Origin: Bacteroidota bacterium
GTDB taxonomy: Bacteria; Bacteroidota; Bacteroidia; Bacteroidales; GCA-2748055
NCBI GenBank assembly: GCA_039714655.1
Contig: JBDLIX010000005.1
Coordinates: 16,509-80,508, forward strand
DNA length: 64,000 nucleotides
Direction of reading: 5' to 3'
Part shown: positions 26,133-43,968 of the stretch, piece after piece
Position numbering within the stretch: position 1 is the stretch's first letter
How the letters are laid out: every line of letters begins with the position of its first letter
Program-made: the position numbers and the translations under genes
The notes under the pieces: model-generated
Seen by the model: the letters and a program-made list of their open reading frames with translations, nothing else
The model's database searches: none
Told to the model about the DNA's origin: nothing

Positions 26133-27023
26133 TTGGAAATTAGAATTAAAAATTTAGGCAAGACATATCCGGGAGGATTTCAAGCCCTGGATAACATCGA
26201 TCTGAACATATCCGAGGGTATGTTTGGCCTCCTGGGACCCAACGGAGCTGGGAAATCAACGCTCATGCGAATTCTGGTTACACTGATGAAACCTACTTCA
26301 GGAGAGGTGCTGATCGACGGAAAGAATATCAATAGCTACAGAAAGGAGATCAGAAAGATGGTGGGTTATCTTCCCCAGGATTTCCGCTTTTTCACAAAAC
26401 TTCGTTCCTGGGAATTTCTCGATTATGCAGCAAGGCTGGCTGGAATGAATCTCAGAAAGGAGCGCAGGGAGAGGGTGGACGAAATGCTGGAGAGTGTCGG
26501 GTTGTACGAATTCAGGAACCGAATGGCCAACAAGTTGTCGGGAGGAATGAAGCGAAGATTGGGTATCGCACAGGCATTGATTGCCCGCCCATCCATCATT
26601 ATTGTGGACGAACCTACAACAGGACTGGATCCTGAAGAGCGCATCAGGTTCAGGAATCTCCTCTCTGACCTGGGTCGGAGCGATACGATTATTATCCTAT
26701 CCACCCACATTGTTGGGGATATCTCCAGCACCTGTAACCAGATGGCATTGCTGAATGAAGGTGCATTAATCTATGAAGGAACCCCCGATCAACTGGTTGA
26801 CCAGGCGAAAGGATATGTATGGAGAACTGAGGTTAGTCAGGAGGAATATGAACAAATGAAGGATGAGTTCCCCATCATATCAACCATTCCATCGGGAACC
26901 GGATGGGAGGTGCAGTTTGTGGGAGAAAAGCCTTCAGGTATTAGTGCTCAAAGGGTCGAACCCAACCTGGAGCACGCTTATGTTCATTACATGGATAATA
27001 AATTAAGTCACTGGAATATATAA
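26133..27023 (+). CDS. ABC transporter ATP-binding protein (ABC-2/DrrA-like subfamily with C-terminal extension)
   Basis: TTG start. Walker A [9 protein letters not shown], signature LSGGMKRR, Walker B [12 protein letters not shown], H-loop LSTHIV. First gene of the 26133..41649 operon. Confidence 0.9.
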   Translation: [296 protein letters not shown]

Positions 27024-30000
27024 TGAACCTGCATAACATATGGAACATAGCCACTTATGAAAGCAAGACACTTTTCAGAAGCTGGTTTTTCAGAATCTTT
27101 TCCATGCTGGCACTGTTCTTTCTGTTTGGGATCAATACCGGTTTTTTTGGAGACCACGGTGGTGCAAGGTGGACCACACGGGCCATAGCAGCAAATCTGC
27201 CTTATATTAATGTGCTGTTTATAAACGTAGCACAGGCTGTGATCGCTGTTTTTCTGGCTTCCGATTTTTTGAAAAGGGATAAAAAACTGGACACTACTGA
27301 AGTGATCTACGCACGACCCATCACAAATGGAGAATATGTGGTGGGGAAAACCCTTGGGATCCTGGTTCTGTTTATTGGATTGGTAGTGCTGGCACTCGCC
27401 ATGTCGCTGATCTTTAACCTGATCAGACAGGATGTCCCCGTTGTTTGGGAAGCATATCTCTACTACCCCTTACTGATCACTGTCCCCACATTGGTATTTA
27501 TCCTTGGACTCTCTTTTTTCATGATGATCCTGTTCCGTAGTCAGGCCGTCACCTTCCTGGTTTTGCTGGGCTATATCGGACTTACACTTGCCTATTTCCA
27601 GGACAAAGCGTACGGAATGCTCGACTACATGGCATTTAACCTGCCCATGGTTTATTCCGATTTTATCCAGTTTGCTGAAATTGACCGGATCATTCTGCAC
27701 CGGCTGGCTTACCTGGCTCTTGGAATAGGTTTTATATTCGCCACCATACGATTCCTGAACAGATTGCCCCAGACAGGAAGGTGGAATATTATTAACCTGA
27801 TCGCATTTCTCCTGTTTCTGTTTGGAGGAGCCGCATTGGGAACCCGGTATTTTTCCATTTTCAAAGAGCAGGCCATGCAACGAGCCGAATTTCTTGAGCT
27901 GAATAACCGGTATGCCAGTAAGGATGTGGTGGATATCGTTGCCAATGATCTGCATGTAATACAACAGGGCAGCAAGCTGGAGGTGATTTCAGAGCTCCGG
28001 GTAAGGAATCCGCACACCCAGCCACTGGACACGCTTATTTTCTCATTAAACCCGGGATTTGTCATTGACAGCATTACCGGCAGGGAGGGTCAGGTTGATT
28101 ATCTCAGGATAAAACAAATTATCCGGATCGTACCGGAGAAGAGTCTGGCCCCGGGTAGAGGGAGCCGGTTTACTTTCTTCTATCATGGAAAACCTATTGA
28201 GTCGGTTGCCTATCTTGATATTCCCAGGGAGCAGGTGGAAGCACTTAAACGAATCCAGGTAGCACCATTAAATAAAGAGCCGGGGATTGTCCACGAGAAC
28301 TACATACTTTTAACACCAGAACTGCTCTGGTATCCTCTGGCTGGTGTAGGCTTCAACATGAAAACATTTCAGCCGCAAGAGATGGATTTTGTTCGGTTTA
28401 GCCTGACCGTTAATCCGGGTGAAGGTTTAACGGCCATTGCCCCGGGGAAAATGACTCAAACGGAGGAGGAGGTCAAATTCGTTCCTGAAAATGATCTGAA
28501 TTCCCTTCCATTGGTGATTGGACCACTGGAGATGAAAAGCATGGAAATTGATGGAGTACAATACAACCTGTACTCAAAACCCGGTCACGATTTCTTCTCA
28601 GAATATTTCACAAATATTACTGATACACTGGGCGTATTGATCAAGGAGGCCAAGGACAATTATGAGTTGGATGAGCTGGATCTTTATTATCCCTTTGAAC
28701 GGATCAACCTGGTAGAGGTTCCCATCCAGTATCATGCTTATGAGCGCCCGTACATTCAAACCGTAGATAATATACTTCCTGAATTAATCCTGTTACCGGA
28801 AAAAGGGGCAGGGATCAATACACTGGATTTTGAACGTTACAAAAAGGCTGCAGAACGTCGTGACAGAGACCGGGAAAATCAGCGAAGTCCCCGGGAGAGA
28901 GAGACGGAACAATTCAAACGTCTGCTACAAAATACCTTCTTCCGGTCGGGTACAACAACCAGATCCAGGGGATTTCGCGGCGGCGGAGAGGGTGGAGAGG
29001 AACTGATTACTTTTCAGGGTGGTTCCAACTATACAAAGAATCCCTATTGTGTCTTTCCACTCTACTACAGCTATGTGACAGGAATTAGTTCGAAGCAGTA
29101 CCCGGTCTTTAACTCCATGATGGAACTCTACCTGAAAGATGGGTTTGAAGTCTCGCCCAGACAGGGCTTTACAGGAGGGATCACCGACCATGAAAGGGCC
29201 AACCTGGCACTACAGGAACGAAACATGATCGATATATTTGCACAGTGGAATACAGAACTTAGCTCCTCACTGATCAACCAGACCGGCAGTTTTATCATTT
29301 CGGCATTGAAAAACCGGGTGGGAATGGGAGACTTTGACTACTTCTTATACTATTACCTGGAGGACCATGCCTTCAAGGAGATATCATTCGAACAGTTTAC
29401 CTCTGATTTTAAAGATGAGTTCGATGTGGATATTGAACCTTACCTGGAGATCATTAATTCGGGAGGAGCGATGGCCACTTTCCTTATCTCCGTACCTGAA
29501 TACATCCAGACCAGGGATGAGATTGGGGATGTATACATAATTCGCTTCAGAATCACCAACGCTGGTAAAGCAAAGGGCATGGTAGACGCCACTTTCCGAA
29601 TCATGGGACAGGGTGGATTTGGGAGTGGTAGTGGCATGAGTACTGAGCAGCGGTTATTTGAAATAGATGCGGGAACCACCAAAGAGGTTCAGGTAGTACT
29701 GTATGACCGGCCCATGATGATGACGGTAAATACGCTCATATCCGGAAATATCCCTTCCAGTTATAATAATTTCTTAAGATCCGCAACCACCGTGGAGAAG
29801 AGTAACCTGGAGGAATATGAACGGCTCAGTGATGATCCTGTAAGTTTTACCTTTAAGGATGAATATGTGGTAGACAATGAAGATGACGGGTTTTCATCTG
29901 TTTCGGTCTCCAGGGAGAGTAAGTTAAAGCAGTATATCGATGCCCGAAAAAAACAGGACGAGACCATCTCTTATGGAAGCCTCAATGAGTGGTGGACGCC

Positions 30001-30466
30001 TTCTAAATGGACCCCGGTGGCACACTCTGCCTACTATGGTGAATCAGTGCGATCGGCGCTTGTAACACGCAGCGGAGATGGAGCAAACCTTGCCAGTTGG
30101 ACCACACTGTTGCCCGAGGCAGGTTTTTATGATGTGTATGTATATATCCCAGTATCAGCTATGTACCGCCGGCCATCGGGAAGGGACCGAAACCAGGGGG
30201 GAGAAAGTGGAAGCCCGGGACAACAGCAGGGAAACAGACGGATGGGTCCGGAGTTTGCTGACAAGGGGACAGATTACCACTATACCATCACATCCAATGA
30301 GGGTACAGAAGAGGTGGTGTACATGCTGGACAATCCGGAAGATGGATGGAACCGGTTGGGATCGTTCCATTTCCCGGCAGATACGGCTGTCATCGAACTC
30401 TCCAATCTTACAGGAGGCAGGCGGGTGATCGCCGATGCTGTGAAATGGGTACGCAGGCCTGGATAG
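27023..30466 (+). CDS. giant membrane protein: N-terminal ABC-2-type permease-like 6-TM domain fused to a roughly 860-aa non-membrane region ending in a golvesin-C-terminal-like module
   Basis: The ATG overlaps the ATPase stop (TAATG). About 280 aa form six hydrophobic helices. A long soluble part has no HExxH that I can see. There are low-complexity RDRDRENQRSPRERE and GGGEGGEE stretches. The C-terminal GFYDVYVYIP...YTITSNEGTEEV...GWNRLGSFHF...VIADAVKWV resembles the golvesin/CBM-like fold as I recall it. Confidence 0.7.
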   Translation: MNLHNIWNIATYESKTLFRSWFFRIFSMLALFFLFGINTGFFGDHGGARWTTRAIAANLPYINVLFINVAQAVIAVFLASDFLKRDKKLDTTEVIYARPITNGEYVVGKTLGILVLFIGLVVLALAMSLIFNLIRQDVPVVWEAYLYYPLLITVPTLVFILGLSFFMMILFRSQAVTFLVLLGYIGLTLAYFQDKAYGMLDYMAFNLPMVYSDFIQFAEIDRIILHRLAYLALGIGFIFATIRFLNRLPQTGRWNIINLIAFLLFLFGGAALGTRYFSIFKEQAMQRAEFLELNNRYASKDVVDIVANDLHVIQQGSKLEVISELRVRNPHTQPLDTLIFSLNPGFVIDSITGREGQVDYLRIKQIIRIVPEKSLAPGRGSRFTFFYHGKPIESVAYLDIPREQVEALKRIQVAPLNKEPGIVHENYILLTPELLWYPLAGVGFNMKTFQPQEMDFVRFSLTVNPGEGLTAIAPGKMTQTEEEVKFVPENDLNSLPLVIGPLEMKSMEIDGVQYNLYSKPGHDFFSEYFTNITDTLGVLIKEAKDNYELDELDLYYPFERINLVEVPIQYHAYERPYIQTVDNILPELILLPEKGAGINTLDFERYKKAAERRDRDRENQRSPRERETEQFKRLLQNTFFRSGTTTRSRGFRGGGEGGEELITFQGGSNYTKNPYCVFPLYYSYVTGISSKQYPVFNSMMELYLKDGFEVSPRQGFTGGITDHERANLALQERNMIDIFAQWNTELSSSLINQTGSFIISALKNRVGMGDFDYFLYYYLEDHAFKEISFEQFTSDFKDEFDVDIEPYLEIINSGGAMATFLISVPEYIQTRDEIGDVYIIRFRITNAGKAKGMVDATFRIMGQGGFGSGSGMSTEQRLFEIDAGTTKEVQVVLYDRPMMMTVNTLISGNIPSSYNNFLRSATTVEKSNLEEYERLSDDPVSFTFKDEYVVDNEDDGFSSVSVSRESKLKQYIDARKKQDETISYGSLNEWWTPSKWTPVAHSAYYGESVRSALVTRSGDGANLASWTTLLPEAGFYDVYVYIPVSAMYRRPSGRDRNQGGESGSPGQQQGNRRMGPEFADKGTDYHYTITSNEGTEEVVYMLDNPEDGWNRLGSFHFPADTAVIELSNLTGGRRVIADAVKWVRRPG

Positions 30467-30506
30467 AGACTGGATAGATAGTTTAAGCAATGAAAATTTG
30501 GATATC

Positions 30507-32012
30507 ATGAACAGATATTGGACAAAGAAGAGAGTTATAATTGGTGCACTTGCCCTGCTCCCGGCAGTCTCCTCCCCGGAGCTGTTTTCACAGGAGTTGC
30601 TCACCATGGGTCGCTCCATGGAGATTGCAGTGGAGAACAGTCCTGATATGCAGCAGACCGAACTGGCACTGGTGCAGAGTCAGGAGAGGCTAAATGCCCA
30701 GAGGGCCAGGCTGAAATCTCAGTTTTCCGTCACCCTGAATCCATTTGAATATGAAAAAACCAATCGTTTTGACCAGCAGACCAGTGAATGGTACCTGAAT
30801 GAATCGACCTCTTCCGGGGGGACTTTTGCCATCAACCAGCGGATCCTGCCCACCGATGGTGAACTAACCCTGGTAAACCGGTTCTCTTATGACTATAGCC
30901 TTACTGAATCGGCTTATGCCATCGATCCGGTCTCCAAGACCTTTAACAACCGTCTTTACCTTCAATTTACCCAACCCATCTTTACCTATAACCGTACCAG
31001 GATGGAGTTGGAGCGGGTGCAACTGGATTACGAGTCCTCCCTTCTCAGGTACCTTTTAATGAAACTTTCACTGGAGCGGGAAGTGGCACGGGAGTTTTAC
31101 GCAGTCTACTCCAACCAGATGCGGCTGGTCATTGCCGAAGAGAGTCTTAAGAACAACCAGGAGAGTCATGAAATTATCAGTAACAAGGTAGAGGGGGGAT
31201 TGCTGGCACTGGAAGAGCTCTACCAGGCCGAAGTCAATCTGGCCACCAGCCATTCAGATGTCTTCAATTCAGAACTTACCCTTGAGAACAGCATGGACCA
31301 GTTCAAGGTGCTTATCGGTCTGCCACTGGAGACTACCCTTATGATCGCAGCTGAGATCAAGGCCGATACAGTAGCTGTGAATCAGGAGATGGCCATCACC
31401 CATGCACTCGATAACCGCATGGAGCTCAGAGAGCGTGAGATTGACATTGAAAATGCAGATTTCAACCTGGTACAGGCAAAGGCGACCAATGAATTTGAAG
31501 GATCCATCACAGCCTCCTTTGGTGTACAGAGCAATGATGAACTATTCTCCGAGCTGTTTGAGACCCCCACCAATACTCCAAGCATTGGACTGACCCTGAA
31601 CATTCCCATATTTGACTGGGGAGAACGCAAATCGGAAATCAAAGCCGCTGAAGCCAGTTTAAAGAGTTCACAGTTGGATTATAAAATTGAAAAGACCGAT
31701 ATAGAAGTGAACATTCGTTCAGTAGTGCGAAGCTTGAAAAATTTAGAAAACCAGATCGAGATACAACGAAAAACCGTTGAGAACGCCCAGCTGACATATG
31801 ATATAAACCTCGAACGGTACAGGAATGGAGATCTGACCAGCATGGACCTGGGACTGTACCAGAGTCAGCTTTCAGATACCAAAATGGCACTGACCAATGC
31901 CATCATCGATTATAAAATTGAGCTTCTCAATCTGAAAATACAGACCCTGTATGATTTTGAGACTCACATACCCATTATCCCCGAAGAGTTAACCACTGAA
32001 GCATCAGAATAA
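30507..32012 (+). CDS. TolC-family outer membrane efflux protein
   Basis: Signal peptide and a two-fold repeated OEP pattern (..LELALVQSQERLNAQRARL.., ..AEASLKSSQLDYKIEK.., YRNGDLTSMDL). About 500 aa. Confidence 0.85.
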   Translation: MNRYWTKKRVIIGALALLPAVSSPELFSQELLTMGRSMEIAVENSPDMQQTELALVQSQERLNAQRARLKSQFSVTLNPFEYEKTNRFDQQTSEWYLNESTSSGGTFAINQRILPTDGELTLVNRFSYDYSLTESAYAIDPVSKTFNNRLYLQFTQPIFTYNRTRMELERVQLDYESSLLRYLLMKLSLEREVAREFYAVYSNQMRLVIAEESLKNNQESHEIISNKVEGGLLALEELYQAEVNLATSHSDVFNSELTLENSMDQFKVLIGLPLETTLMIAAEIKADTVAVNQEMAITHALDNRMELREREIDIENADFNLVQAKATNEFEGSITASFGVQSNDELFSELFETPTNTPSIGLTLNIPIFDWGERKSEIKAAEASLKSSQLDYKIEKTDIEVNIRSVVRSLKNLENQIEIQRKTVENAQLTYDINLERYRNGDLTSMDLGLYQSQLSDTKMALTNAIIDYKIELLNLKIQTLYDFETHIPIIPEELTTEASE

Positions 32013-32031
32013 AACAGATAACCCATATACC

Positions 32032-33093
32032 ATGAAAAGCATTCATACCCTATTAATCAGCGGAGTGGCACTTTCCATTCTGCTTGTCTCCTGCAAACAG
32101 CCCGATATGGAGGTAGATACCACCATTGAAGTTCCGGTAGGAGTGATCGAGGTCAACGCTTCCAGCATTGAAGAATTTGTAAGTACCACCGGATCGGTCT
32201 ACCCCCGCAAAGAGGTGAGCCTTCATTCAGAAATAACCGGTATGTATAAGCTGCAGATCAATCCTGCCACCGGTAAACCCTATGCCCTTGGGGACCGGGT
32301 GAGAGCCGGAGCATCGATTATAAAACTTGAGGATGAGGAGTATTACAATGATTTGCGCATCAAGTCAAAGGAGGTTGACCTTGAGATCTCAAAACTGGAG
32401 TACGAGAAACAACAGTCACTCTATGAGAAAGGTGGAGCCACTTTAAGAGAGCTGAAAAATGCGGAGATCACCCTTATGAATACCCAGTATGATATAGAAA
32501 GCAGTCAGATCAACCTGGCAAAGATGTCATTGAATGCACCCTTTTCGGGGATCGTTGCTGACCTTCCGTATTTTACCAACGGTACCAGGGTGGCAAGCAA
32601 TACTTTGATGGTTCAGGTGATTGATTACGGTAAGCTTTACATGGAAGCCAATCTTCCGGAAAAATATTTCAAAAGCATTGAGCGCGGATACAAGGTTTAT
32701 GTGACCAGTTATACCAGTACGGCCGATACCCTGACAGGTCTCATTACTCAGATCTCCCCATCCATAGACCCGGAAGCACGAACCTTCAAATGTTTCGTGG
32801 AAGTGGACAACCATGATGGCATTCTGCTTCCAGGCATGTTTGTGAAAGCCGACCTGGTGGTGAATAGTGCAGAAAATGCGCTGATTATTCCAAGGGAGAT
32901 CATCGTAAGCCGTAACCGGAACCAGATCGTTTATGTAGTGGACAAAGGTGTTGCCAGTGAGCGGGTCATCACCACCGGACTTCAGAACGAAACCACTGTT
33001 GAGGTAAAGATGGGACTTCTGAAAGGAGAAAGTGTCGTAAGTTCCGGATTTGAGACACTGCGCGATCAATCCAGGGTAAGGATCCTCAGGTAG
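32032..33093 (+). CDS. efflux RND periplasmic adaptor (membrane fusion protein), lipoprotein
   Basis: Lipobox LLVSC. A coiled-coil hairpin segment. Lipoyl/beta-barrel motifs (LNAPFSGIVADL, PGMFVKADLV). Confidence 0.85.
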   Translation: MKSIHTLLISGVALSILLVSCKQPDMEVDTTIEVPVGVIEVNASSIEEFVSTTGSVYPRKEVSLHSEITGMYKLQINPATGKPYALGDRVRAGASIIKLEDEEYYNDLRIKSKEVDLEISKLEYEKQQSLYEKGGATLRELKNAEITLMNTQYDIESSQINLAKMSLNAPFSGIVADLPYFTNGTRVASNTLMVQVIDYGKLYMEANLPEKYFKSIERGYKVYVTSYTSTADTLTGLITQISPSIDPEARTFKCFVEVDNHDGILLPGMFVKADLVVNSAENALIIPREIIVSRNRNQIVYVVDKGVASERVITTGLQNETTVEVKMGLLKGESVVSSGFETLRDQSRVRILR

Positions 33094-33112: not shown

Positions 33113-36100
33113 ATGTTAAAAGCAATAACCAGATTTTCAGTCAATTATCCTGTATCGGTGAGCATGATTATCATTGCCACCCTGCTGCTGGGATATATAT
33201 CATTCGATAAACTGGGTATCGATCTTTTTCCCAACCTGCACAGCCCCCGGTTATATATCGAACTTGCTGCGGGCGAACGGCCTCCGGAAGAGATGGAGGA
33301 GAAATTCGTGGATCCGGTAGAAGCATTGGCCATCAGGCAGAGTGGGGTAGTGAATGTCTCTTCCACATCCCGTGTGGGTGTGGCACTGGTTGAAGTGGAG
33401 TATACCTGGGAAAAGGATATGAATGAGGCCTTCCTGGACCTTTCCAAAGCACTATCTTCCTTTAATCAGGATGATGAATTGGAGGAGATCAATATTACGC
33501 AATACGATCCCAATTCAACCCCGGTTATGCTGGTGGCCTTTCAGCATACCGAAACCGATGACCTGAACGAACTTCGGAAGACAGCTGAGAACTATGTGAA
33601 GAATGAATTGATCAGGCTTGAAGGGATCGCCGACGTGGAGGTGGATGGCGCAGAAGAGATTGAGGTACTGGTAGAAACCAATGATTACTTACTCAACTCC
33701 TTTAATCTGGACATCTCCACCATTACCAACAGGATTACCAGTTACAATCAGAATGTATCGGGAGGTTCCATCGTTGAGATGGGGAAACGTTACATTGTGC
33801 GGGGTCTCAGTGAACTGGAACAGATCCGGGACCTGGAGCAGATCATTGTGAAGATGGGTCACTCCACAGAAGAGGCAACCGGTGAAAGGGTGCCGGTCCT
33901 GTTGCGGGATGTGGCAACCATCACCATGACACCTAAGGAGCAACAGAACTCCGTCTTGCTTAACGGAGAGCCATGTGTGGGCCTGAGCATCTATAAAGAG
34001 ATGCGCTACAATACCGTAAAAGCTGTTGAAGAGCTGCGCGAGGCCCTGGAAGAGATGCACAGGTCGCTCCCCGGTTTTACATTTACCATTGTTGAAGACC
34101 AGGGGGATTACATCTCTTCTGCCATTGGTGAAGTGAGTGATAGCCTGATTGGCGGGATTGTCCTGGCCGTGTTTGTACTCTTCCTGTTCCTCAGACGAAT
34201 TGGACCCACTGCCATTGTCAGCGTGGCCATCCCAGTCTCAATCATTGCCACCTTTGTGCTCATGTATTTTACCGGCCTTACTCTGAACATTATGACACTG
34301 GGGGGTCTTGCGCTGGGAGCAGGGATGCTGGTGGACAATGCTATCGTAGTACTGGAGAATATTTTCCGCAATCACGAACAGGGTTTATCTGTAAGGGAAG
34401 CTGCCATTACAGGTACCTCCCAGGTGGGAGGGGCCATTGTGGCTTCTACCATGACTACCATTGTGGTTTTTATTCCCATCGTATACCTGCGTGGAGCATC
34501 GGGTGAATTATTTAAGGAACAAGCCTTTACGGTGGCATTTTCACTCCTCTGCTCACTGGTAGTGGCCATCCTGATCATTCCCATGCTCTATTCCCGAATA
34601 TACAGGAAGAGGTCTCCTTTCTCCGGCAAGGTTAAACAATCTATACAATTGACAGGATACGGCCGTTTTCTTGAAAAATTACTGAGTTTTAAAACCTGGG
34701 TGCTGCTGGGTACCGCGTCATTGATGGTTGCCGGATGGTTTATGCTCAAACAGACCGGAAGTGAGTTTATGCCAAAGGCAGATGTGAATGAATTCTATGT
34801 GGACCTTAAGATGCCTGAAGGAACAGAGCTCCAAAGGACATCCGGGGCAGTTGTCAGCGTAGAAACGATACTTCGCGAAATCTCAGGTGATGGCGTGGAG
34901 CTTATCTACAGCGAAATTGGTCCTACTTCGGGATTGTCCACAGGAGGTGAGAACCTGTTTGATGATCAGAATATGGCTACCATCAAGGTGAAGCTCAATC
35001 CCGGGAGTCAGATTCCGGCAAATTCCATCATTGTTGCTCTGACCGGTCATTTTAAAGATAATCCCAATTTCACCGCCCTGTTCCGCCAGGAAGAGAGTGC
35101 GCTTCAAACGATTCTGGGAACCAACGAATCGCCCCTGGTTGTGGAGTTAATTGGTGATGAGATGGATGAACTGGAAACAATGAGTGTTCAAATAATGGAA
35201 AAACTTGAACAGATTGAGGGAATCAGGAATATAAGCTCTTCGGTGGAGGGTGGAGCACCTGAAGTGGAGATAGCCATTGACAGGTACCGGGCCGGACTGA
35301 TGAATGTGGATGTCAACACATTGATCAACCGGGTGAGTGAAAAACTGCAAGGGGCAGAGGCCGGACAGATGAGTGTCAGGGGTGACCTGACCGACATCAC
35401 TGTAAAGCTGGAGGATATCACATTGAAGGAACTGGAGATGCTTACTGTGGAAGTGGATAATACGGAGATTCTACTCAGGGAAGTAGCTGATATCTCCATG
35501 GGCAGTTCACCCAGGGAGATTCTGCATAACAACCAAAACCGCATTATTGAAATCAGTGCAGATCTTGACCAGGGATTGCCACTGGATCGAATTGCTGTTG
35601 AAATTGAGGAACGGTTGAAGGATGTGGAATTTCCACCAGAGTACAGTTATAAAATCACCGGTGAGGAGGCCATGCGAAAGGAGTCCATGGGTAATTTGGG
35701 ATTTGCATTGTTGCTATCACTTATCCTGGTTTATATGGTGATGGCTTCCCAATTTGAAAGCCTTGTACATCCCTTCACCATTCTATTGCCTGTCCCTCTG
35801 GCAGTGGTGGGTGCCGTTGCGGTCTTTTACTTCCAGGGTAAATCATTAAATATAATGGCCATCATTGGAATTATAATGCTGGTGGGCATTGCGGTTAACG
35901 ATTCCATAATACTGGTGGATGCCATCAACCAGTTCAGAAAAGAAGGTATGAAATTGAAAGAGGCCATTGTGGCTGCTGGTCAGCGTAGGATCAGGCCCAT
36001 TATTATGACTACCCTGACCACCATTCTGGCGCTCTTTCCACTGACACTCGGATTTGGCGAAAGTGCTTCACTTCGTTCACCCATGGCGTGGGCGGTCATC

Positions 36101-36214
36101 GGGGGGCTTATTACTTCAACAATGCTTACCCTCATCGTAATACCTTGTATCTATATGTTCTTTGGACAATTAGGGAGGAAAGGTGAAAGAATAAATAGTT
36201 TACAGGGTGAATAA
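33113..36214 (+). CDS. RND efflux permease (AcrB/MdtB-like), paralogue 1
   Basis: 1033 aa with a 12-TM AcrB layout. N-terminal ITRFSVNYPVSVSMIII. TM4 motif GMLVDNAIVVLENIF. TM10 GIAVNDSIILVD. C-terminal LIVIPCIYMFF. Confidence 0.9.
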   Translation: MLKAITRFSVNYPVSVSMIIIATLLLGYISFDKLGIDLFPNLHSPRLYIELAAGERPPEEMEEKFVDPVEALAIRQSGVVNVSSTSRVGVALVEVEYTWEKDMNEAFLDLSKALSSFNQDDELEEINITQYDPNSTPVMLVAFQHTETDDLNELRKTAENYVKNELIRLEGIADVEVDGAEEIEVLVETNDYLLNSFNLDISTITNRITSYNQNVSGGSIVEMGKRYIVRGLSELEQIRDLEQIIVKMGHSTEEATGERVPVLLRDVATITMTPKEQQNSVLLNGEPCVGLSIYKEMRYNTVKAVEELREALEEMHRSLPGFTFTIVEDQGDYISSAIGEVSDSLIGGIVLAVFVLFLFLRRIGPTAIVSVAIPVSIIATFVLMYFTGLTLNIMTLGGLALGAGMLVDNAIVVLENIFRNHEQGLSVREAAITGTSQVGGAIVASTMTTIVVFIPIVYLRGASGELFKEQAFTVAFSLLCSLVVAILIIPMLYSRIYRKRSPFSGKVKQSIQLTGYGRFLEKLLSFKTWVLLGTASLMVAGWFMLKQTGSEFMPKADVNEFYVDLKMPEGTELQRTSGAVVSVETILREISGDGVELIYSEIGPTSGLSTGGENLFDDQNMATIKVKLNPGSQIPANSIIVALTGHFKDNPNFTALFRQEESALQTILGTNESPLVVELIGDEMDELETMSVQIMEKLEQIEGIRNISSSVEGGAPEVEIAIDRYRAGLMNVDVNTLINRVSEKLQGAEAGQMSVRGDLTDITVKLEDITLKELEMLTVEVDNTEILLREVADISMGSSPREILHNNQNRIIEISADLDQGLPLDRIAVEIEERLKDVEFPPEYSYKITGEEAMRKESMGNLGFALLLSLILVYMVMASQFESLVHPFTILLPVPLAVVGAVAVFYFQGKSLNIMAIIGIIMLVGIAVNDSIILVDAINQFRKEGMKLKEAIVAAGQRRIRPIIMTTLTTILALFPLTLGFGESASLRSPMAWAVIGGLITSTMLTLIVIPCIYMFFGQLGRKGERINSLQGE

Positions 36215-39200
36215 ACATTTCCTCATACAACGGAAGGTCCTCATCTCTATGCTGTTTATTGCAGCAACCATGTTGGGGTATATCTCCTGGAAGCAGTTGA
36301 AAATGGAGATATTTCCCAATGCTGAGCTACCCATGCTCTATATACAGGTCAGCTCCCGGATCGATGTCACCCCTGAATATATGGAACAGGAGGCGATTAT
36401 ACCTGTGGAGAGCATGGTGGCTGGTCTTGAGAACATAGAGAAAATTGAATCCACGGCTGGCAGACGGCAGGGGTCGGTCCTGATCTCCTACGAGGAGCGG
36501 ACCGATCTGAAATATGCCTATTTGAAACTGGATGAACAGATTTCGGCTCTCAGAGGGTCTCTGACCGATGATTTTACCCTTCAGGTGGTTAAGATTGACC
36601 TGGAGTCCATAGACAACACCCTGATGAGTCTTCAGGCCCGGGGATCCGGAGGTATCGACCGGGTGCGGAACTATGTGGATCAGCACATTGTTCCAGAATT
36701 GGAAAATATCGAGGGGGTGGCAACTGTGAATGTATTCGGTGGCCGTCAAAAATCTGTGGATATTATCCTTGACAGGGCAGCTTGCGACGCTTACAATATT
36801 GCACCCACCAGGGTAAGATCGATCCTCTCATCCAACATGAACCTTCGTCAGTACGGAGGAGTGGTCAGGGAGGAGGGCAGAAGGTACTTTATTTACCTCA
36901 ATGCGGAATATGAGGAGATCTCCCAGATCGAGGAGCTGGTGGTGGGTAGAGGAAGAGATCCGGTGAAGCTCAAGGATATTGCTGAAATCTTCTACGGTGA
37001 AAAGGAGGAAGAGACCATTAGCCGGGTCAATGGAAAGGATGCGGTTTCCCTGCAACTGGTCAATGATGCCCAGGCCAATATCATTGAGCTTTCACATAGT
37101 GTTCAGGAGCGGTTGAAGCAGTTGAACAGGGAGGGAAGAGCCTTTGATATTGAGGTGATGATCCAGGAGAACTCGGCGGAACTCATGGAAGATAACATCA
37201 ACCAGATCATTCGCCTGGCCCTGACCGGTGCACTGCTGGCCATTTTCGTGCTCTGGGTGTTCCTGCGCAACGTGAAACTGGTCATCATTGTGGCCATGGC
37301 CATGCCCATATCCATTTTTACTGCATTCAATTTCTTCTTCGCTTTTGATATCTCCATCAATAGCTTAACACTCATTGGAATTGCGCTTGCAGTGGGTATG
37401 TTATTGGATACATCGGTGGTGGTCCTTGAAAACATTTACCGCCTCCGTACCCTTGGGTACAAACCTGCTGAAGCTGTCATTCAGGGCACCGGCGAGGTAT
37501 GGCGTTCCATAGTAGCGGCAACAGGTACCACCATTGCGGTATTTATTCCATTTATATTCTCGTCCGATTTCTTAATACAACTCCTGGGAAGACATATAGG
37601 AGTTTCCATCATCTCAACCCTGGTTGTCTCTCTTTTTATTTCGCTGCTTCTGATACCAATGGCAGTGCATCTTATTCTCTCCCGGAGTGACAGGAGCAAA
37701 AGAGAAGTATACCAGAAAGTATCGCTCAACAATCGGCTTGTCAGGATCTACCTGTCACTGCTGAAAACAGCTTTAAGGAATCCTGCACCCACAATCATCG
37801 GGGTACTTGCCCTCTTTTTTGTCACCATCATTACGACCTTATCAGTTTCGGTAAATCAGCTTTCGGAATTGGAAACCGATCAGGTGGTCCTCTATGTGAC
37901 CATGCCCACCGGGACTACCCTGGAAACAACAGACCAGCTGGTTGCAGGAATGGAAGAAACACTTTTAAGCATCGGGGAGAAGAAGGAGGTAATCTCAAGG
38001 ATCGAAGAGGAGGAGGCGACAGTCACCATATTATTACAGGATGATTACCGGAAGATCAACAACCGCTCTTTTGGTGAGATCCAGTCGGAAGCATATGAAT
38101 TGGTAAAAGAGATGCCTGCCTCAGATATCACTCTCACTGCTCCCACAACAGGGATGAGCGGCAATCGTGGAAATGGAGGAGGAGGAGGAGGAGGCAACAA
38201 CCAGGCGGGTGCTGCAGGTTTTCAGCAATTATTGGGAATCGGGGAGGATGAGGAGTATATCGTGATGAAGGGACAGGATTTCAGGTTGTTGGTGGAGGTG
38301 GCTGAAAATGTTCAATCTTACCTGGAGGAGCTTGATAATATCAGTTCGGTAAGGCTCTCTGTCAGGGAGAACCAACCGGAGGTGCATATTGATTTCAATA
38401 CATTGTTAATGAGTCAGTACGGAGTCACCCAGAACCAGGTAATGGGAGAATTGAACAGCTTTCAGAATGAGATTAGCTCAGGGGTCAACTTCAGTCAGAA
38501 AAATGAGGAGTATGAGATTCTGATCAAATATAATGATGCAGTGGAAGGAGAAGATGCTGAGGAAAAATCAATGAAGGATCTGGAATCGCTTCATATCCCT
38601 GATAGTGATGATGAGAATCTTTTCGAACTTCAAACGATTGCAGAGCTGTTTTACGCCAGTGGATTACGTGATATTTCCAGGGTTAATCAGGAGAAGCAGG
38701 TTGAGTTACGCTACCAGTACAATGAAGATGTGTACGACTCCAATGATCTCCTGGAATTTGCACGGAGTGAGATCGAAGATGTGATTGCAAATGCGAATAT
38801 TCCCTCTGGTGTAGCTGTGGAGCTGGTCCAGGAAGATTCTGGTTTGGATGAGTTCAAATATATGTTTCTTATAGCATTTATCCTTGTATATATGATTCTT
38901 GCTGCCATATTTGAATCCTTTGTTACACCTTTTGTACTGCTCTTTTCCATCCCCCTTGCAGCCATCGGATCTTTCTTCCTGCTCTCCATCACCGGTGAGT
39001 CCCTGTTTAATGCCAATACCATTATGGGATTTCTCATTCTGCTGGGCGTGGTGGTGAACAATGGGATCATACTCCTGGACTTTATCAATGTGTTGCGCCA
39101 GAAGGGGTACCGAAAAACAAGGGCCATATTACTGGGTGGTTTATCTAGGGTTCGTCCCATTTTAATTACAGCAGTTACCACCTGCGCCGCCATGCTTCCT

Positions 39201-40931
39201 CTGGCCATGGGAAATGCCGAATATGTCAAAGCGATCGGTCCACCCTTTGCCATCACAGTTATTGGTGGATTGAGCCTGAGCACCCTGCTTACACTTGTTT
39301 ATATCCCCATGCTCTATAGCGGGATTGAACAAGCCCTCTCCTGGATCAGGAGTCTGAACCTGTTTGTGAAGCTAGTGTTGCTTTTGTTGGAACTGACAGG
39401 AATGATTATGGTCATCCTGTACATCCAATCGTTTATCTGGCAGATGGCTGGCGGATTGGTGGTGCTGGTTGGAATTCCTGTCACATACTGGTTTGTTTCA
39501 AGTAGTCTGCGAAAGGCCAAAACAAGCATTATTTCTGCAGATGATTCCATTCATATTGAAGTATCGAACCTGGTTAAGATCTATGGAAGAGAGCCTAAAG
39601 CCATAAGAGATTTCAAGGCTGGAAATCGCATGGCGAGAAGTGTTCAAGTCCTCGAAAAAGCGTTAAAACCCAGGTTGGATGCACTGGTCTGGCAACTGCC
39701 GCTGATGGGTTTTCTGGCCTATTTTACATGGTTCTACCTGGTAAGCGGATTCTGGCAACTGGTATCATCGGTAATATTATATTACTATGTGATCCATATC
39801 ATCAACGATTTTGTCACCCTGCGAAATAGCAGGGGATTAAGGCTCCTGGTTGAGATCTTCCGGTATGCAGCTCCACTGCTGGTATTATTCTTCTATCAGA
39901 CGAGGTGGACAAACCTGGCAATAACATTGCTTGCCGGCGGATTATGGCTCCTGATTATTGCCATAGGACGTGTAGCCATTTTGATAAAAAGGGAACAGTT
40001 TGAGATCAAGGAAATTCGCCCTCTCTACCGCTGGTTTGTCTGGTTTGTAAGAATAGTGCCCGGAATTGGTCAACGGGTAGAACAGTTCAAAGCCCTAAAG
40101 GGCGTTTCCCTTCAAATTGGAACAGGGATGTTTGGTTTACTGGGGCCCAATGGGGCCGGTAAGTCCACAATGATCCGTATTATCTGCGGTATTCTGGAAC
40201 AGAGTTATGGCAAGATATGGATCAACGGGATTGATACCCAGGAGAAGAGGGAAGAGTTACAGGGGCTCATCGGATACCTTCCCCAGGAATTTGGCATGTA
40301 TGAAAACATGTCATCTTACGCTTACCTGGACTATCAGGCCATGTTAAAAGGAATCACCGATCCAGTGAAGCGTAGAAAGAGGATCAGGGAGGTACTGGAT
40401 TCGGTCCACATGTGGGAACATCGCAACAAGAAGATTGGTTCCTATTCCGGCGGAATGAAACAACGAATCGGGATTGCGCAGGTATTGTTGCATCTACCGC
40501 GCATCCTGGTGGTGGATGAGCCTACAGCCGGACTTGATCCCCGGGAACGGATACGTTTCAGGAACCTTCTGGTTGAGCTTAGCCGCAGCCGGGTGGTGAT
40601 CTTCTCCACACATATTATCGAGGACATTTCCAGCTCATGCAATACCATGGCGGTAATCAACAGGGGAGAGGTTCTCTTTAACGGCACACCCAGAGAGATG
40701 ACAGAAATAGCCCGGGGCAGGGTTTGGAAATCCACCCTTCCGGCAGCAGATTTTGAGGAGGCGACAAAAGAGTTGCTTGTGGTCCATCACATGCGTGACG
40801 GAAACAACATCAGGGTACGTTGTATCTCTGCTGATAAGCCATTCGCCGATTCAGTGGAGGAGCATCCATTGCTTGAGGATGCTTACCTCTGGTTACTACG
40901 CTCAGATAAAGAGAAGATTGCCAATCACTAA
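36207..40931 (+). CDS. fusion protein: complete RND efflux permease (paralogue 2) + 2-TM linker + ABC ATP-binding domain interrupted by a roughly 4-TM insertion
   Basis: The GTG start overlaps paralogue 1 by 8 nt. One uninterrupted 1574-codon frame. RND part to about aa 1040 ([38 protein letters not shown]). NBD beta1 [13 protein letters not shown] at 39549. Hydrophobic insertion about 39693..39990. [28 protein letters not shown] from 40086. Also [20 protein letters not shown] and FSTHII. Confidence 0.85.
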   Translation: [1574 protein letters not shown]

Positions 40932-40935
40932 AACT

Positions 40936-41649
40936 ATGTCAGGCTTTAACTCCATATTGCGAAATTTTTACGACCTCTCAAGGTACAACATGAAGATTAT
41001 CTTCGGGGGCAAGTTTATCTATTTTATCCTGGCAGCATTCTTATTCTTCCTTGTATTCGGAACTATTATTGCCCTGGACAGCAATGTAATTTGGACCGCT
41101 GAGATTTACGGACTAGTTGCATTCCCCGCCATTCTTTTGGCCTTTTATCCCTCTGTATTCGGGATTCAGAGTGATGCCGATCAGCGCACCCTGGAGATTA
41201 TTTTTGGCATACCTGATTACCGTTACAAAGTATGGCTTGTCCGGTACTTAATGATTCTATTGATTGTTTTTCTACTGTTATTCCCATTTGCAGCCATTGC
41301 ATATTATTCCCTGATCAGTTTCCCGTTTATGAAGATGGTTCTTCACCTGATGGTTCTGGTACTATTCACCTCTTCCTTGGGATTCTGCCTGTCAACTCTG
41401 TTGAAAAACGGTAATGCCACAGCAGTGATAATGGTCATATTTGGTCTGGTGTTTCTGATCTTAGCTGATGAGCTGTACACATCCAAGTGGAATGTTTTTT
41501 TAAATCCGTTTCCAAACTTAGAAAATATCAATGCCATTGTGTGGCAGGAGACCCTCCGGCAGAACCGCATCATTATGGGCATCGTCAGCGTGCTCCTTCT
41601 CCTGCTGGGGCTGCTGAACCTGCAGCAGAGAGAGAAGTTCCTGAGGTAG
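40936..41649 (+). CDS. ABC-2-type transporter permease-like membrane protein
   Basis: 237 aa with about six hydrophobic helices. The ATG lies 4 nt after the stop of the fusion gene. The 5' part of the listed ORF (40753..) overlaps the preceding CDS and was rejected. Confidence 0.7.
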   Translation: MSGFNSILRNFYDLSRYNMKIIFGGKFIYFILAAFLFFLVFGTIIALDSNVIWTAEIYGLVAFPAILLAFYPSVFGIQSDADQRTLEIIFGIPDYRYKVWLVRYLMILLIVFLLLFPFAAIAYYSLISFPFMKMVLHLMVLVLFTSSLGFCLSTLLKNGNATAVIMVIFGLVFLILADELYTSKWNVFLNPFPNLENINAIVWQETLRQNRIIMGIVSVLLLLLGLLNLQQREKFLR

Positions 41650-41710
41650 CTCAGGGTACAAATATTTGTCTTACTTTTATTATATTCATAAACGATCTAA
41701 AACTGCCGCT

Positions 41711-42802
41711 ATGAACCGAAAGAAAGCAAATTTAATCCTTATGCTCCTGTTGCTTTTTTCAATAGCAAGGGGAGGAGATCATGATCCACCTGAGGTCATT
41801 GGTCTCTGTATTGCAGCACCCGGACCTGACCGTCTGGAACAATTCCTCTCATTTATGGAAAATGACCTTGCTCCCGGAGGCGTCAATACCCTGGTATTAA
41901 GGATTGATTTTAACTATGAATTTAAATCCTATCCCAACCTGCGGAGTGAAGGTGCACTCACAAAAAAACAGGTGAAACAGCTGGTAAACAAAGCCCGGAA
42001 ACATGGTATTCAGCTCATTCCGCAGATCAATCTCCTTGGGCATCAATCCTGGCATACAGAACTTTCCAACCTGCTGAAAGAGTATCCCGAATTTGACGAG
42101 AATCCATCGGTAAAGTTGCCTGAAAAATATGAATGGCCCAATGAAGATGGTTTGTACTGCAAAAGCTACTGTCCTTTACATCCGGAGGTACATAAAGTGG
42201 TATTTGCACTGGTGGATGAGATCATGGAGGTGTTTGAAGCCAATGCCTTCCATGCCGGTATGGATGAGGTATTTTACATAGGAGAGGATGAATGTCCCCG
42301 TTGCAGTGGAGTAGATAAAGCTGAACTATTTGCAGGAGAAGTAAACCTGGTACGTGATCACCTGGCCGCAAATGGTCAGGAGCTTTGGATCTGGGGAGAC
42401 AGGCTTCTTGATGGGAAAACCTCCGGGCTGGGCATGTGGGAAGCCAGTGAAAATAACACCCACCCGGCCATAGATATGATTTCCAAAGAGGTAGTCATCT
42501 GCGATTGGCATTATGAAAGGGCCGATCCAACAGCAGCAGTTTTTGCCCTGAAAGGATTTCGCGTAATCACATGCCCCTGGCGCAATCCGGAGGTTACCAG
42601 GGAGCAGCTGGTGATGATGGAGTCCTTTCGATCCAACAGTGTCGACATTGTAAAGGAGCGCTATGCCGGGTTTATGCAGACCGTGTGGAGTCCGGCAGGC
42701 ACTTTCATGGACCAGTTCTATGCGGAGGACCCCGATGAGGTCACCAAAGGTCAGGTGGGAAGTCTTCACCAGATCATTCAATTCTACAACCCTTCTGAAT
42801 GA
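41711..42802 (+). CDS. GH20-like (beta-N-acetylhexosaminidase catalytic-domain-like) secreted protein
   Basis: Signal peptide. GIQLIPQINLLGHQSW and FHAGMDEVF resemble the GH20 (I/V)PE(I)D.PGH and H.GGDE segments. Confidence 0.5.
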   Translation: MNRKKANLILMLLLLFSIARGGDHDPPEVIGLCIAAPGPDRLEQFLSFMENDLAPGGVNTLVLRIDFNYEFKSYPNLRSEGALTKKQVKQLVNKARKHGIQLIPQINLLGHQSWHTELSNLLKEYPEFDENPSVKLPEKYEWPNEDGLYCKSYCPLHPEVHKVVFALVDEIMEVFEANAFHAGMDEVFYIGEDECPRCSGVDKAELFAGEVNLVRDHLAANGQELWIWGDRLLDGKTSGLGMWEASENNTHPAIDMISKEVVICDWHYERADPTAAVFALKGFRVITCPWRNPEVTREQLVMMESFRSNSVDIVKERYAGFMQTVWSPAGTFMDQFYAEDPDEVTKGQVGSLHQIIQFYNPSE

Positions 42803-43968
42803 GTTCAATCCGCCTGAAGTCCATTGACATATTAAGGGCACTCACCATGCTCCTGATGATTTTTGTAAACGATCTCTGGACACTCTCTAATATACCTGAA
42901 TGGCTGGGGCATAAAGCAGCACATGAGGATGGGATGGGACTGGCAGATGTGGTATTCCCTGCTTTCCTGTTTATTGTGGGGCTCTCCATTCCCCACGCCA
43001 TCCGCTCCAGGTTCAACAAAGGGGAGAGAAAAGTCCAGGTTCTGAGACACATTATTGAACGCTCTCTGGCACTTCTGATCATGGGGGTATTTATGGTGAA
43101 TCTGGAAAATATTGATGCCGGAAAACTCCTGTTCAGTAAATATATCTGGCAGATCCTGATGACCCTCGCCTTTTTTCTGATCTGGAATGTATACCGGGAT
43201 AAGGTATTTGGAAAAATTCCACCCCAGGTAATGAAAATAACCGGATGGATGATCTTGATTTTCCTGGCGGCTGTTTATGTTGGACCAGGTGAAGGAAGCT
43301 ACCACTGGATGCAGCTTCACTGGTGGGGCATATTGGGACTTATCGGATGGGGATACTTGTTGAGTGCATTGGTCTACCTGGGACTGGGCAACCGACCGGG
43401 ATGGATTGCACTTATATGTGCAATGCTCTTCCTGATGAATGTCAATGAGTTTACTACACCATTTAATTTCAGTTTCAAACTGGTGGTGAGCGCTTCCAAC
43501 TATGCCAGTGTCATGTGTGGCGTTCTGGCCACCTCGATCATGATCAGGCTTAGGGAAAAGGAGGGGATACAATACCTGGTGCCGGCATTGCTTGGTTTGG
43601 CAACAATCCTCATGCTGTTCGGGTACATGACCAGGCCCGCCTGGGGAATCTCCAAAATAATGGCCACTCCTTCCTGGACCGCCATCTGTGCCGGAATCAC
43701 CTCACTCTCCTTTGCTGTGCTATACCTGCTTTCCGATAAACTTGGAATAACCCGCTGGGCTGATCTGATCGCACCTGCCGGCTACAGCACCCTCACCTGC
43801 TACCTGGTCCCGTATTATGTCTATGCACTTGTTGCAATGACGGGCCTCGCCCTGCCGGAGATACTCACCACAGGAGGGGTTGGGATTGTGAAATCAATCC
43901 TGTTTTCCATCCTGATTGTCCAATTGACAGGAGTGCTTGGTAAGATCAACATCCGGCTGAAGATCTGA
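42799..43968 (+). CDS. DUF5009 / heparan-alpha-glucosaminide N-acetyltransferase-like membrane protein
   Basis: RLKSIDILRALTMLLMIFVNDLW start typical of this family. About 10-11 TM helices. 4-nt ATGA overlap with the preceding gene. Confidence 0.7.
   Translation: MSSIRLKSIDILRALTMLLMIFVNDLWTLSNIPEWLGHKAAHEDGMGLADVVFPAFLFIVGLSIPHAIRSRFNKGERKVQVLRHIIERSLALLIMGVFMVNLENIDAGKLLFSKYIWQILMTLAFFLIWNVYRDKVFGKIPPQVMKITGWMILIFLAAVYVGPGEGSYHWMQLHWWGILGLIGWGYLLSALVYLGLGNRPGWIALICAMLFLMNVNEFTTPFNFSFKLVVSASNYASVMCGVLATSIMIRLREKEGIQYLVPALLGLATILMLFGYMTRPAWGISKIMATPSWTAICAGITSLSFAVLYLLSDKLGITRWADLIAPAGYSTLTCYLVPYYVYALVAMTGLALPEILTTGGVGIVKSILFSILIVQLTGVLGKINIRLKI

Follow-up and report, generated by a model that had tools for sequence, protein, structure and literature searches.

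A single open reading frame (ORF) in the 64,000-nucleotide (nt) window that we analyzed (contig JBDLIX010000005.1 of the Bacteroidota assembly GCA_039714655.1, forward-strand positions 16,509 to 80,508) encodes a resistance-nodulation-division (RND) permease fused to an ATP-binding cassette (ABC) ATPase, and the nucleotide-binding domain (NBD) of that ATPase is predicted to be interrupted, directly after its first beta strand, by a membrane domain of four helices. An initial annotation of the window had proposed an ABC ATPase fold broken by a roughly four-helix membrane insertion, and the homolog alignment, the loop charges and an AlphaFold2 (AF2) model all agree with that proposal. Nucleotide coordinates are window positions throughout, and amino acid (aa) numbers are those of the fusion protein.

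The split nucleotide-binding domain and its predicted membrane insert

The fusion ORF (36207..40931, + strand) is uninterrupted from its GTG start and encodes 1574 aa. The interval 39549..40170, to which the initial annotation referred, lies inside it and has a translation identical to the sequence quoted there. Because the ORF is uninterrupted and full-length homologs (1550-1590 aa) come from many independent assemblies, we consider the fusion to be genuine and not an assembly artifact. Its parts, with the transmembrane (TM) helices as predicted, are as follows (sources in parentheses).

36207..39320, +: RND permease domain, AcrB/MdtB-like, 12 TM helices, aa 1-1038 (Pfam PF00873; best PDB relative MdtB)
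39360..39503, +: TM-A (aa 1052-1072) and TM-B (aa 1076-1099), an extra hairpin between RND TM12 and beta1 (hydropathy, AF2, loop charge)
39549..39587, +: displaced NBD strand beta1, aa 1115-1127, with the A-loop aromatic Y1126 at 39582..39584 (DSSP, conservation, MAFFT)
39588..40085, +: insert, aa 1128-1293, 166 residues (AF2, positive-inside pattern)
40086..40169, +: beta2 to Walker A segment, aa 1294-1321
40086..40709, +: remainder of the NBD from beta2 onward (Pfam PF00005)
40710..40931, +: NBD C-terminal accessory domain (aa 1502-1574) and stop codon (BLASTP against the free NBD paralog; AF2 strands)

The segment upstream of the insert follows the pattern I-x-I-x4-L-x-K-x-Y, that of the canonical first NBD strand ending in the adenine-stacking A-loop aromatic (PMC3971661). 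Residues I1117, L1122, K1124, and Y1126 are invariant among 72 aligned homologs, and homologs without the segment, an outcome that the initial annotation had allowed for, were not seen in this set. Given these invariant positions and the conserved spacing before Walker A, the motif is not a chance occurrence. When 82 homologs were aligned using MAFFT with the free NBD paralog encoded in the same window, the N-terminus of the paralog split exactly across the insert, and its beta1 paired with the upstream segment. In the paralog itself (gene 26133..27023) the N-terminus is contiguous, as the initial annotation had described it, with the A-loop aromatic 20 residues ahead of Walker A. The corresponding distance is 187 residues in this fusion (Y1126 to G1313) and 184-222 residues (median 198) in 22 family representatives. 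The spacing was measured by searching 50%-identity representatives with a regular expression for beta1, which matched 23 of the 41 that had a Walker A motif. The 23rd match, 100 residues before Walker A in protein P0211, lies in a hydrophobic part of the insert and is not a true beta1; the true strand of this protein, LTISIRNLTKIY, lies farther upstream. Both P0211 and P0237 have a beta1 that is one residue shorter, and hence was missed by the regular expression. The motif was kept in all six full-length distant members read by eye, including Acidobacteriota (UBA4820) and KSB1 proteins. Compared with ABC NBDs in which the A-loop is contiguous with beta2, some 20-25 residues before Walker A, the fusion has kept the aromatic but lost the contiguity. 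The NCBIfam GldA model is matched by the free paralog from model position 1 and by the fusion from position 14, which is what a displaced beta1 would produce; the match to the DrrA model begins at position 4.

Structure prediction was performed by AF2 on aa 1031-1574 with a 72-sequence alignment (model residue n corresponds to aa n+1030), and gave a mean predicted local distance difference test score (pLDDT) of 81.4 and a predicted template modeling score (pTM) of 0.65. The modeled elements, with H for helix and E for strand in model numbering, are listed below.

H22-42, H46-75 (aa 1052-1105): two TM helices before beta1, pLDDT 88-95
E87-96 (aa 1117-1126): beta1 strand
H101-119 (aa 1131-1149): basic amphipathic helix
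H124-147, H151-176, H179-204, H207-230 (aa 1154-1260): four TM helices of 24-26 residues with 2-3-residue turns, pLDDT 82-91
H242-253 (aa 1272-1283): second amphipathic helix
E264-274, E277-282 (aa 1294-1312): beta2, then the strand into Walker A

According to DSSP, aa 1117-1126 form a 10-residue strand (pLDDT ~77-86), and all other strands of the modeled chain are in the NBD. Since DSSP strands need backbone hydrogen-bond partners, and the only others available are those of the NBD, the model places beta1 in the NBD sheet. The stretch directly before beta2 was modeled as helix and coil, with no strand. Conservation and modeling together support the assignment of the beta1 segment to the NBD fold.

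The placement of the insertion "between beta1 and the Walker A loop" in the initial annotation was right in that the insert follows beta1 with its A-loop, but the insert does not abut Walker A, because beta2 comes first. The estimate of about 165 residues between the two NBD pieces compares with a measured 166 (aa 1128-1293). Within the insert, the basic amphipathic helix (aa 1131-1149) is followed by the four predicted helices TM-C to TM-F (aa 1154-1177, 1181-1206, 1209-1234, and 1237-1260) and then by the second amphipathic helix (aa 1272-1283). Hydropathy analysis located four segments within aa 1161-1260 and two more at aa 1052-1099. The strong hydrophobicity noted for the four segments was borne out, with 19-residue Kyte-Doolittle windows reaching up to 2.3 and family means of 0.95-1.57 per segment. 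A helix count of four is thus correct for the insert, whereas the fusion as a whole has six extra predicted TM helices (two plus four), the two before beta1 having been overlooked.

Loop charges, expressed as the mean number of K+R over the 72 homologs, alternate along the chain.

Loop A-B, predicted periplasm: 0.4
TM-B to beta1, predicted cytoplasm: 3.3
beta1 to TM-C, predicted cytoplasm: 9.7
Loop C-D, predicted periplasm: 0.0
Loop D-E, predicted cytoplasm: 3.9
Loop E-F, predicted periplasm: 1.1
TM-F to beta2, predicted cytoplasm: 9.6

These counts obey the positive-inside rule, in line with the earlier argument that an even number of helices would return the chain to the cytoplasm. The possibility that the hydrophobic stretch is not membrane-spanning was not borne out by hydropathy, by loop charge, or by the AF2 model, and together they support a membrane-spanning insert. 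The periplasmic loops of the extra TM helices are 3-5 residues long. The D-E loop, the sole cytoplasmic loop within the four-helix bundle, has 9 aa here, is variable in length, and is poorly conserved; conserved Pro and Trp residues occur in TM-C, TM-E, and TM-F.

The region between the RND and ABC_tran Pfam domains, ~260 residues, had no Pfam match even at E<=10, and the same limit returned no FtsX or MacB_PCD match for the insert. A profile search found no PDB sequence relative of the insert. Comparison of the insert with the small permease encoded downstream and with RND1, the unfused RND paralog of the window, gave no similarity (hhalign probability <1%), and the insert is therefore no recognizable duplicate of the neighboring membrane segments. 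The initial annotation knew of no NBD with a membrane domain at this position, and our searches of Pfam, NCBIfam, PDB sequences, and the literature likewise gave no example.

The catalytic motifs of an ABC ATPase are all present in canonical form in the fused NBD and are nearly invariant in the 72 homologs.

40143..40169, +: Walker A GPNGAGKST, aa 1313-1321
40275..40295, +: Q-loop YLPQ
40443..40466, +: signature YSGGM
40503..40526, +: Walker B ILVVDE with the catalytic E1438
40602..40619, +: H-loop STH, H1469

The D-loop reads GLD, and Pfam PF00005 (ABC_tran) covers aa 1297-1441 (E=2e-27, 96.8 bits vs. a cut-off of 25). With no degeneration visible in its sequence, the fused NBD would be expected to bind and hydrolyze ATP. 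From beta2 onward it shares 44% identity with the free paralog (BLASTP; paralog residues 16-284 align with fusion aa 1294-1561), which also has the C-terminal accessory domain (AF2 strands E476-510, pLDDT ~90). The closest NCBIfam models, GldA (TIGR03522) and DrrA (TIGR01188), were matched below their equivalog cut-offs (176.7 vs. 402.6 bits and 176.1 vs. 312.45 bits, respectively). PDB relatives were ABCA4, ABCA7, ABCA1, ABCA3, TM_1403, and NosF, and the top Foldseek matches, all to the contiguous NBD, were TM_1403 (4yer), NosF, LptB, and ABCA-family NBDs. By sequence, the fused NBD is thus a member of the ABC-2/DrrA/GldA/ABCA class, but of neither of the two named families (GldA, DrrA).

The RND part of the fusion is a full-length permease with an ACR_tran domain and 12 TM helices (PF00873, E=7e-161, aa 4-1038, model positions 3-1018 of 1021); its score against NCBIfam NF033617 was 443 bits, below the cut-off of 1250. 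The residues of the AcrB-type proton relay equivalent to D408 and K940 are missing in this domain and in RND1. In the fusion, TM4 (37395..37430) carries LLDTS, and TM10 (39045..39080) carries VVNNG where MdtB has VKKN, while the RVRP of TM11 is kept. Across both RND paralogs, TM4 has D-T or D-N for D-D, TM10 has V-N-N or V-N-D, and the RxRP of TM11 is retained. We considered whether the fused domain might be powered by ATP after a loss of the proton relay specific to the fusion, and rejected this idea on the grounds that unfused RND1 has the identical TM4/TM10 pattern. A Gly/Asn-rich low-complexity loop (aa 652-671; 38160..38219, +) lies in the periplasmic part of the fused RND, and the distant homologs P0237, P0238, and P0211 have comparable Gly-rich runs at this position.

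Distribution of the fusion and its gene cassette

With aa 1032-1574 as the query, >120 proteins (49-80% identity) were retrieved, all of which share the layout of the fusion; the majority are partial RND-ABC fusion sequences from metagenome-assembled genomes (MAGs) of Bacteroidales, Prolixibacteraceae, and other groups. A profile of the linker plus insert (aa 1040-1296, built from 13 diverse sequences) was then searched against 1.84 billion representative proteins and yielded 136 matches at E<=0.001, which were RND-ABC fusions only. The full-length matches were all 1550-1590 aa in size with the module at about residues 1025-1300, right after the RND domain, and the others were fragments. No convincing example of an insert-bearing NBD without an RND domain was found among the profile matches. 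Two candidates, P0231 (501 aa) and P0151 (526 aa), were set aside because their sequences begin within TM-B or TM-A, which suggests that the gene calls are truncated. The fusion layout is present in at least three phyla, including Acidobacteriota and KSB1 members, and the alignment of homologs recommended in the initial annotation showed that the position and the length class of the insertion are kept family-wide, other phyla included. One cultured isolate, Labilibacter sediminis CG51, carries the fusion, and this together with the spread over at least three phyla makes the system testable. A scan of genome contigs with generic NBD patterns recovered mostly ordinary ABC ATPases, with true family members at loci L003, L004, and L018 only.

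Database names for the fusions include "efflux RND transporter permease subunit," "ATP-binding cassette domain-containing protein," and "AcrB/ABC-type multidrug transport system ATPase subunit." As annotation pipelines give RND-only or ABC-only labels, the fusion architecture is invisible in annotation. On a 613-kb long-read MAG contig (locus L001, 494..7132), two RND genes appear as four gene calls of 463, 176, 652, and 931 aa, presumably broken by frameshift errors; such broken calls account for the many database "homologs" of ~900 aa that look like half an RND plus an ABC domain. We found no description in the literature of an RND-ABC fusion, of a TM insertion in an NBD, or of a Golvesin/ABC-2/RND system. 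The architecture thus appears to be undescribed so far, although it is built from known kinds of parts, namely an ABC NBD, an RND pump, and an ABC-2 permease.

In the window, the fusion gene is the sixth of seven tightly packed genes that we treat as one cassette, the others being the following.

26133..27023, +: free NBD paralog, TTG start
27023..30466, +: giant ABC-2 permease, 1147 aa, with a large extra domain
30498..32012, +: outer-membrane factor (OMF; Pfam OEP)
32032..33093, +: membrane-fusion protein (MFP; Pfam HlyD)
33113..36214, +: RND1, unfused RND paralog, 1033 aa (Pfam PF00873, E=1e-213)
40936..41649, +: 237-aa protein with six hydrophobic, predicted TM helices, beginning 4 nt past the fusion stop

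The stop of RND1 overlaps the GTG start of the fusion by 8 nt (36207..36214), and the free NBD and giant permease genes have a start/stop overlap at 27023; these overlaps suggest translational coupling along the cassette. A promoter and terminator scan of the cassette gave counts at shuffle level and was uninformative. The order OMF, MFP, RND1, fusion, small protein also occurs in two Bacteroidales MAGs and in Labilibacter sediminis CG51, and an Acidobacteriota contig has ABC, giant protein, MFP, RND1, fusion, and small protein. The RND1 gene is kept in L003, L004, L018, and L083.

The giant permease has an N-terminal ABC-2 domain of ~7 TM helices and a C-terminal part of ~870 aa ending in a Golvesin_C domain. 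Large genes that we group with that of the window lie at L083 (2399..5809) and L006 (10843..14415). The Acidobacteriota ortholog had a weak Peptidase_M1 match (E=0.0016), and the giant permease of L018 carries the Gly-rich stretch GGGRGGRSGERRGGGGPGGQGGGNRGRGN. Aquimarina has a 289-aa ATPase of the same class as the free NBD with a 1190-aa ORF behind it, and the 16 kb inspected there contain no ORF of RND size; the likeness to the free NBD and giant permease pair is one of gene size and order. Such a pair without an RND points to duplication from this ATPase family as the origin of the fused NBD.

The 237-aa protein was present in the mechanically generated ORF list as a 298-aa TTG ORF (40753..41649) overlapping the fusion. 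Its gene follows every fusion gene examined (L001, L002, L003, L004, L018, and L083), and the window and Acidobacteriota copies are recognizably related (hhalign probability 98.9%, E=2.6e-17). The loop between its TM2 and TM3 is almost invariant (FGIQxDxDxRxLEIxFGxPxYRYKxWLxR) and contains a conserved D/E-x-x-T-[LI]-E...P motif resembling DKKLDTTEVIYARP of the giant permease. Comparison of the protein with the giant permease N-terminus gave no similarity (hhalign probability <1%). Pfam matches for the family were weak: PF12698 (ABC2_membrane_3) reached a best E of 1.2e-4 and PF01061 (ABC2_membrane) a best E of 0.012, each in 3 of 12 members, while the window copy had an ABC-2 match at E=0.54. 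Precomputed PF12698 matches exist for 9 of 120 close homologs. Judged from its sequence, the 237-aa protein is probably a divergent ABC-2-type permease, and we infer that it is a candidate transmembrane domain (TMD) partner of the fused NBD.

Past the cassette (41666..43968, +) come genes of the GH20 (beta-hexosaminidase-like) and HGSNAT/DUF5009 (acetyltransferase-like) types, whose junctions are 17 nt long or overlapping. The close relative L002 has these genes in synteny, and they do not follow the cassette in L003, L004, L018, or L083. These genes are probably not part of the core system.

Candidate roles of the extra helices and of the fused ATPase

Taking the protein and its gene neighborhood together, we favor with moderate confidence a reading in which the last ~540 residues of the fusion make up a single complete NBD that is membrane-threaded and catalytically competent, the six extra helices anchor or scaffold it, and the small ABC-2-type permease is its coupling partner. 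On leaving RND TM12, the chain would make a two-helix hairpin (aa 1052-1099), surface in the cytoplasm, and lay down beta1 with the A-loop tyrosine (aa 1115-1127). The basic amphipathic helix would then run along the membrane, followed by two TM hairpins (four helices, aa 1154-1260), and the second amphipathic helix would lead back to beta2, Walker A, and the remaining NBD. With an even number of helices in every excursion, beta1 and beta2 would come together on the cytoplasmic side, completing the antiparallel sheet by which the tyrosine is positioned to stack on adenine. Both basic amphipathic helices are probably located at the membrane surface, and three tethers would hold the NBD at the cytoplasmic membrane face beside the RND transmembrane domain. 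We favor an anchor or scaffold over a translocation path for the six helices because the D-E loop is short and variable and the downstream permease has a conserved, coupling-type cytoplasmic loop. The fused NBD would couple to this small, probable ABC-2 permease encoded 4 nt downstream, possibly with a contribution from the free NBD and the giant ABC-2 permease. The cassette could then encode a composite envelope-spanning exporter, with an ATP-driven ABC-2 module joined to a two-paralog RND pump, an MFP, and usually an OMF. Two stoichiometries can be envisaged: two fused protomers plus one RND1 per trimer, giving an NBD homodimer, or one fused protomer plus the free NBD, giving a heterodimer on the small and giant permeases.

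Several points weigh against this reading. The trimeric build of RND pumps has to be reconciled with the dimeric action of ABC NBDs. The alignment behind the AF2 model is shallow (72 sequences of 49-80% identity), the pairing of beta1 with beta2 is deduced from DSSP and pLDDT, and the Foldseek local alignments take in the contiguous NBD only. For the 237-aa protein, all ABC-2 Pfam scores are below gathering cut-offs, a profile search found no PDB sequence relative (one chance match at E=1), and the AF2 model is unusable (pLDDT 51.7, pTM 0.29; alignment of 73-79% identity homologs).

The favored reading may be extended, rather doubtfully, to a so far unrecognized class of dual-energized envelope machine in which ATP-driven closure of the NBD, perhaps as a heterodimer with the free paralog on both ABC-2 permeases, is coupled, mechanically or spatially, to the proton-driven RND trimer as a one-complex relay from cytoplasm to exterior, with the four-helix bundle transmitting force or a signal.

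The initial annotation had suggested that the inserted helices provide either a private TMD or a docking site for the RND or ABC-2 partner, and of these two roles the private TMD seems the less likely. In such an arrangement, which we consider unlikely, the six extra helices would be the TMD of an ABC half-transporter fused to the RND, driven by the NBD, with the 237-aa protein as an accessory and beta1 in the TM2-TM3 loop. Six is the usual helix count of an ABC exporter TMD, and the TM2-TM3 loop, where beta1 and the amphipathic helix would lie, is where type V exporters have a coupling element; the conserved Pro and Trp residues of TM-C, TM-E, and TM-F are also consistent with such a role. 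Foldseek alignments to full ABCA4 and ABCA7 span 430-520 columns, past the NBD, but with an rmsd of 16-21 Å and a query TM-score of ~0.36 they carry little weight. Further arguments against a private TMD are that no sequence similarity was found between the helices and ABC permeases, the small permease, or the RND helices; that their periplasmic loops are only 3-5 residues long; that the sole intra-bundle cytoplasmic loop is variable; and that the fusion gene always adjoins a dedicated gene for a probable ABC-2 permease whose cytoplasmic loop is strongly conserved.

About as improbable is a regulatory or energizing ATPase, in which the NBD would move no substrate itself and its ATP-driven motions would gate, assemble, or power the RND through the three tethers. 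The NBD is covalently tied to RND TM12 through only two helices, the insert is found solely in RND fusions, and both RND paralogs are without the AcrB-type D408 and K940 relay residues, all of which would fit; moreover, MacB is an example of an ABC ATPase that drives tripartite efflux through mechanotransmission. Unfused RND1 has the altered relay residues as well, however, which makes them a subfamily trait. Further, NBDs of the ABC-2 class, to which this one belongs, work with ABC-2 permeases, for which the cassette has two conserved genes, and with a single NBD on each RND protomer a trimer has no symmetric way of forming canonical dimers.

It is very improbable that there is no real split, with the beta1-like segment a chance match or relic, the NBD using the segment before beta2 instead, or the hydrophobic stretch being a soluble or peripheral helical domain: PF00005 does leave beta1 uncovered, so that domain tables alone do not demand it, but the four invariant motif positions hold a fixed place across phyla, AF2 gives a strand at aa 1117-1126 and helix plus coil before beta2, and the hydrophobicity, helix lengths, and positive-inside pattern fit TM helices.

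Comparison with known ABC and RND systems

The NBD of ABC proteins, one of the best-studied protein folds, is usually pictured as a compact, soluble cassette whose sole contact with the membrane is through coupling helices. The fusion family would instead thread the NBD chain through the bilayer right after the A-loop, which implies that an entire membrane domain can be accommodated within the beta1-beta2 hairpin. SMC and Rad50 ATPases likewise have an ABC fold with a very large insertion and still reassemble into one domain, but what separates their Walker A half from the signature/Walker B half is a soluble coiled coil, whereas the insert described here is a predicted membrane bundle after beta1.

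The sole precedent that we found for an insertion at this NBD site is the regulatory insertion of CFTR NBD1 (residues ~403-438, ~35 long), which lies between beta1 and beta2 (PMC5873040). It shows that the beta1-beta2 hairpin tolerates insertions with the fold intact. The CFTR insertion is soluble, loop-like, and eukaryotic, whereas the fusion insert is ~166 residues long with four predicted TM helices and two amphipathic helices, and no sequence relationship between them was detected. The fusion insert, predicted to be membrane-embedded, is thus not of the soluble, phosphoregulated CFTR type, although the site is shared. The ABC-2/DrrA/GldA-class and ABCA NBDs share the catalytic motifs of the fused NBD, and the free paralog shares its C-terminal accessory domain as well, but in NBDs of the ABC-2/DrrA/GldA class beta1 is contiguous with beta2 and there is no RND fusion, whereas the fused NBD is split and RND-linked.

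Among trans-envelope systems, MacAB-TolC (type VII) likewise has an ABC ATPase on a four-TM module working with an MFP and an OMF. The NBD of MacB is N-terminal and uninterrupted, however, and its TM1 and TM2 enclose a large periplasmic domain; in the fusion, the predicted helices lie inside the NBD, the periplasmic loops are short (3-5 residues), and the periplasmic machinery is that of the RND. Together with the lack of an FtsX or MacB_PCD match, this sets the fusion apart from the MacB/FtsX type. The Escherichia coli system YbhGFSR is built of two NBDs, two distinct ABC-2 permeases, and an MFP, and MdtBC has two RND paralogs in one trimer. The cassette resembles both in having pairs of NBDs, of ABC-2-type membrane proteins (one of them probable), and of RNDs. 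ATP-driven ABC and proton-driven RND transporters, the two major efflux engines of Gram-negative bacteria, are normally held separate, and the fusion provides a natural covalent link between them, which is relevant to the coupling between the inner-membrane and trans-envelope steps of transport. While YbhGFSR and MdtABC are separate ABC and RND complexes, here one RND paralog and one NBD are joined on a single polypeptide via six extra predicted TM helices.

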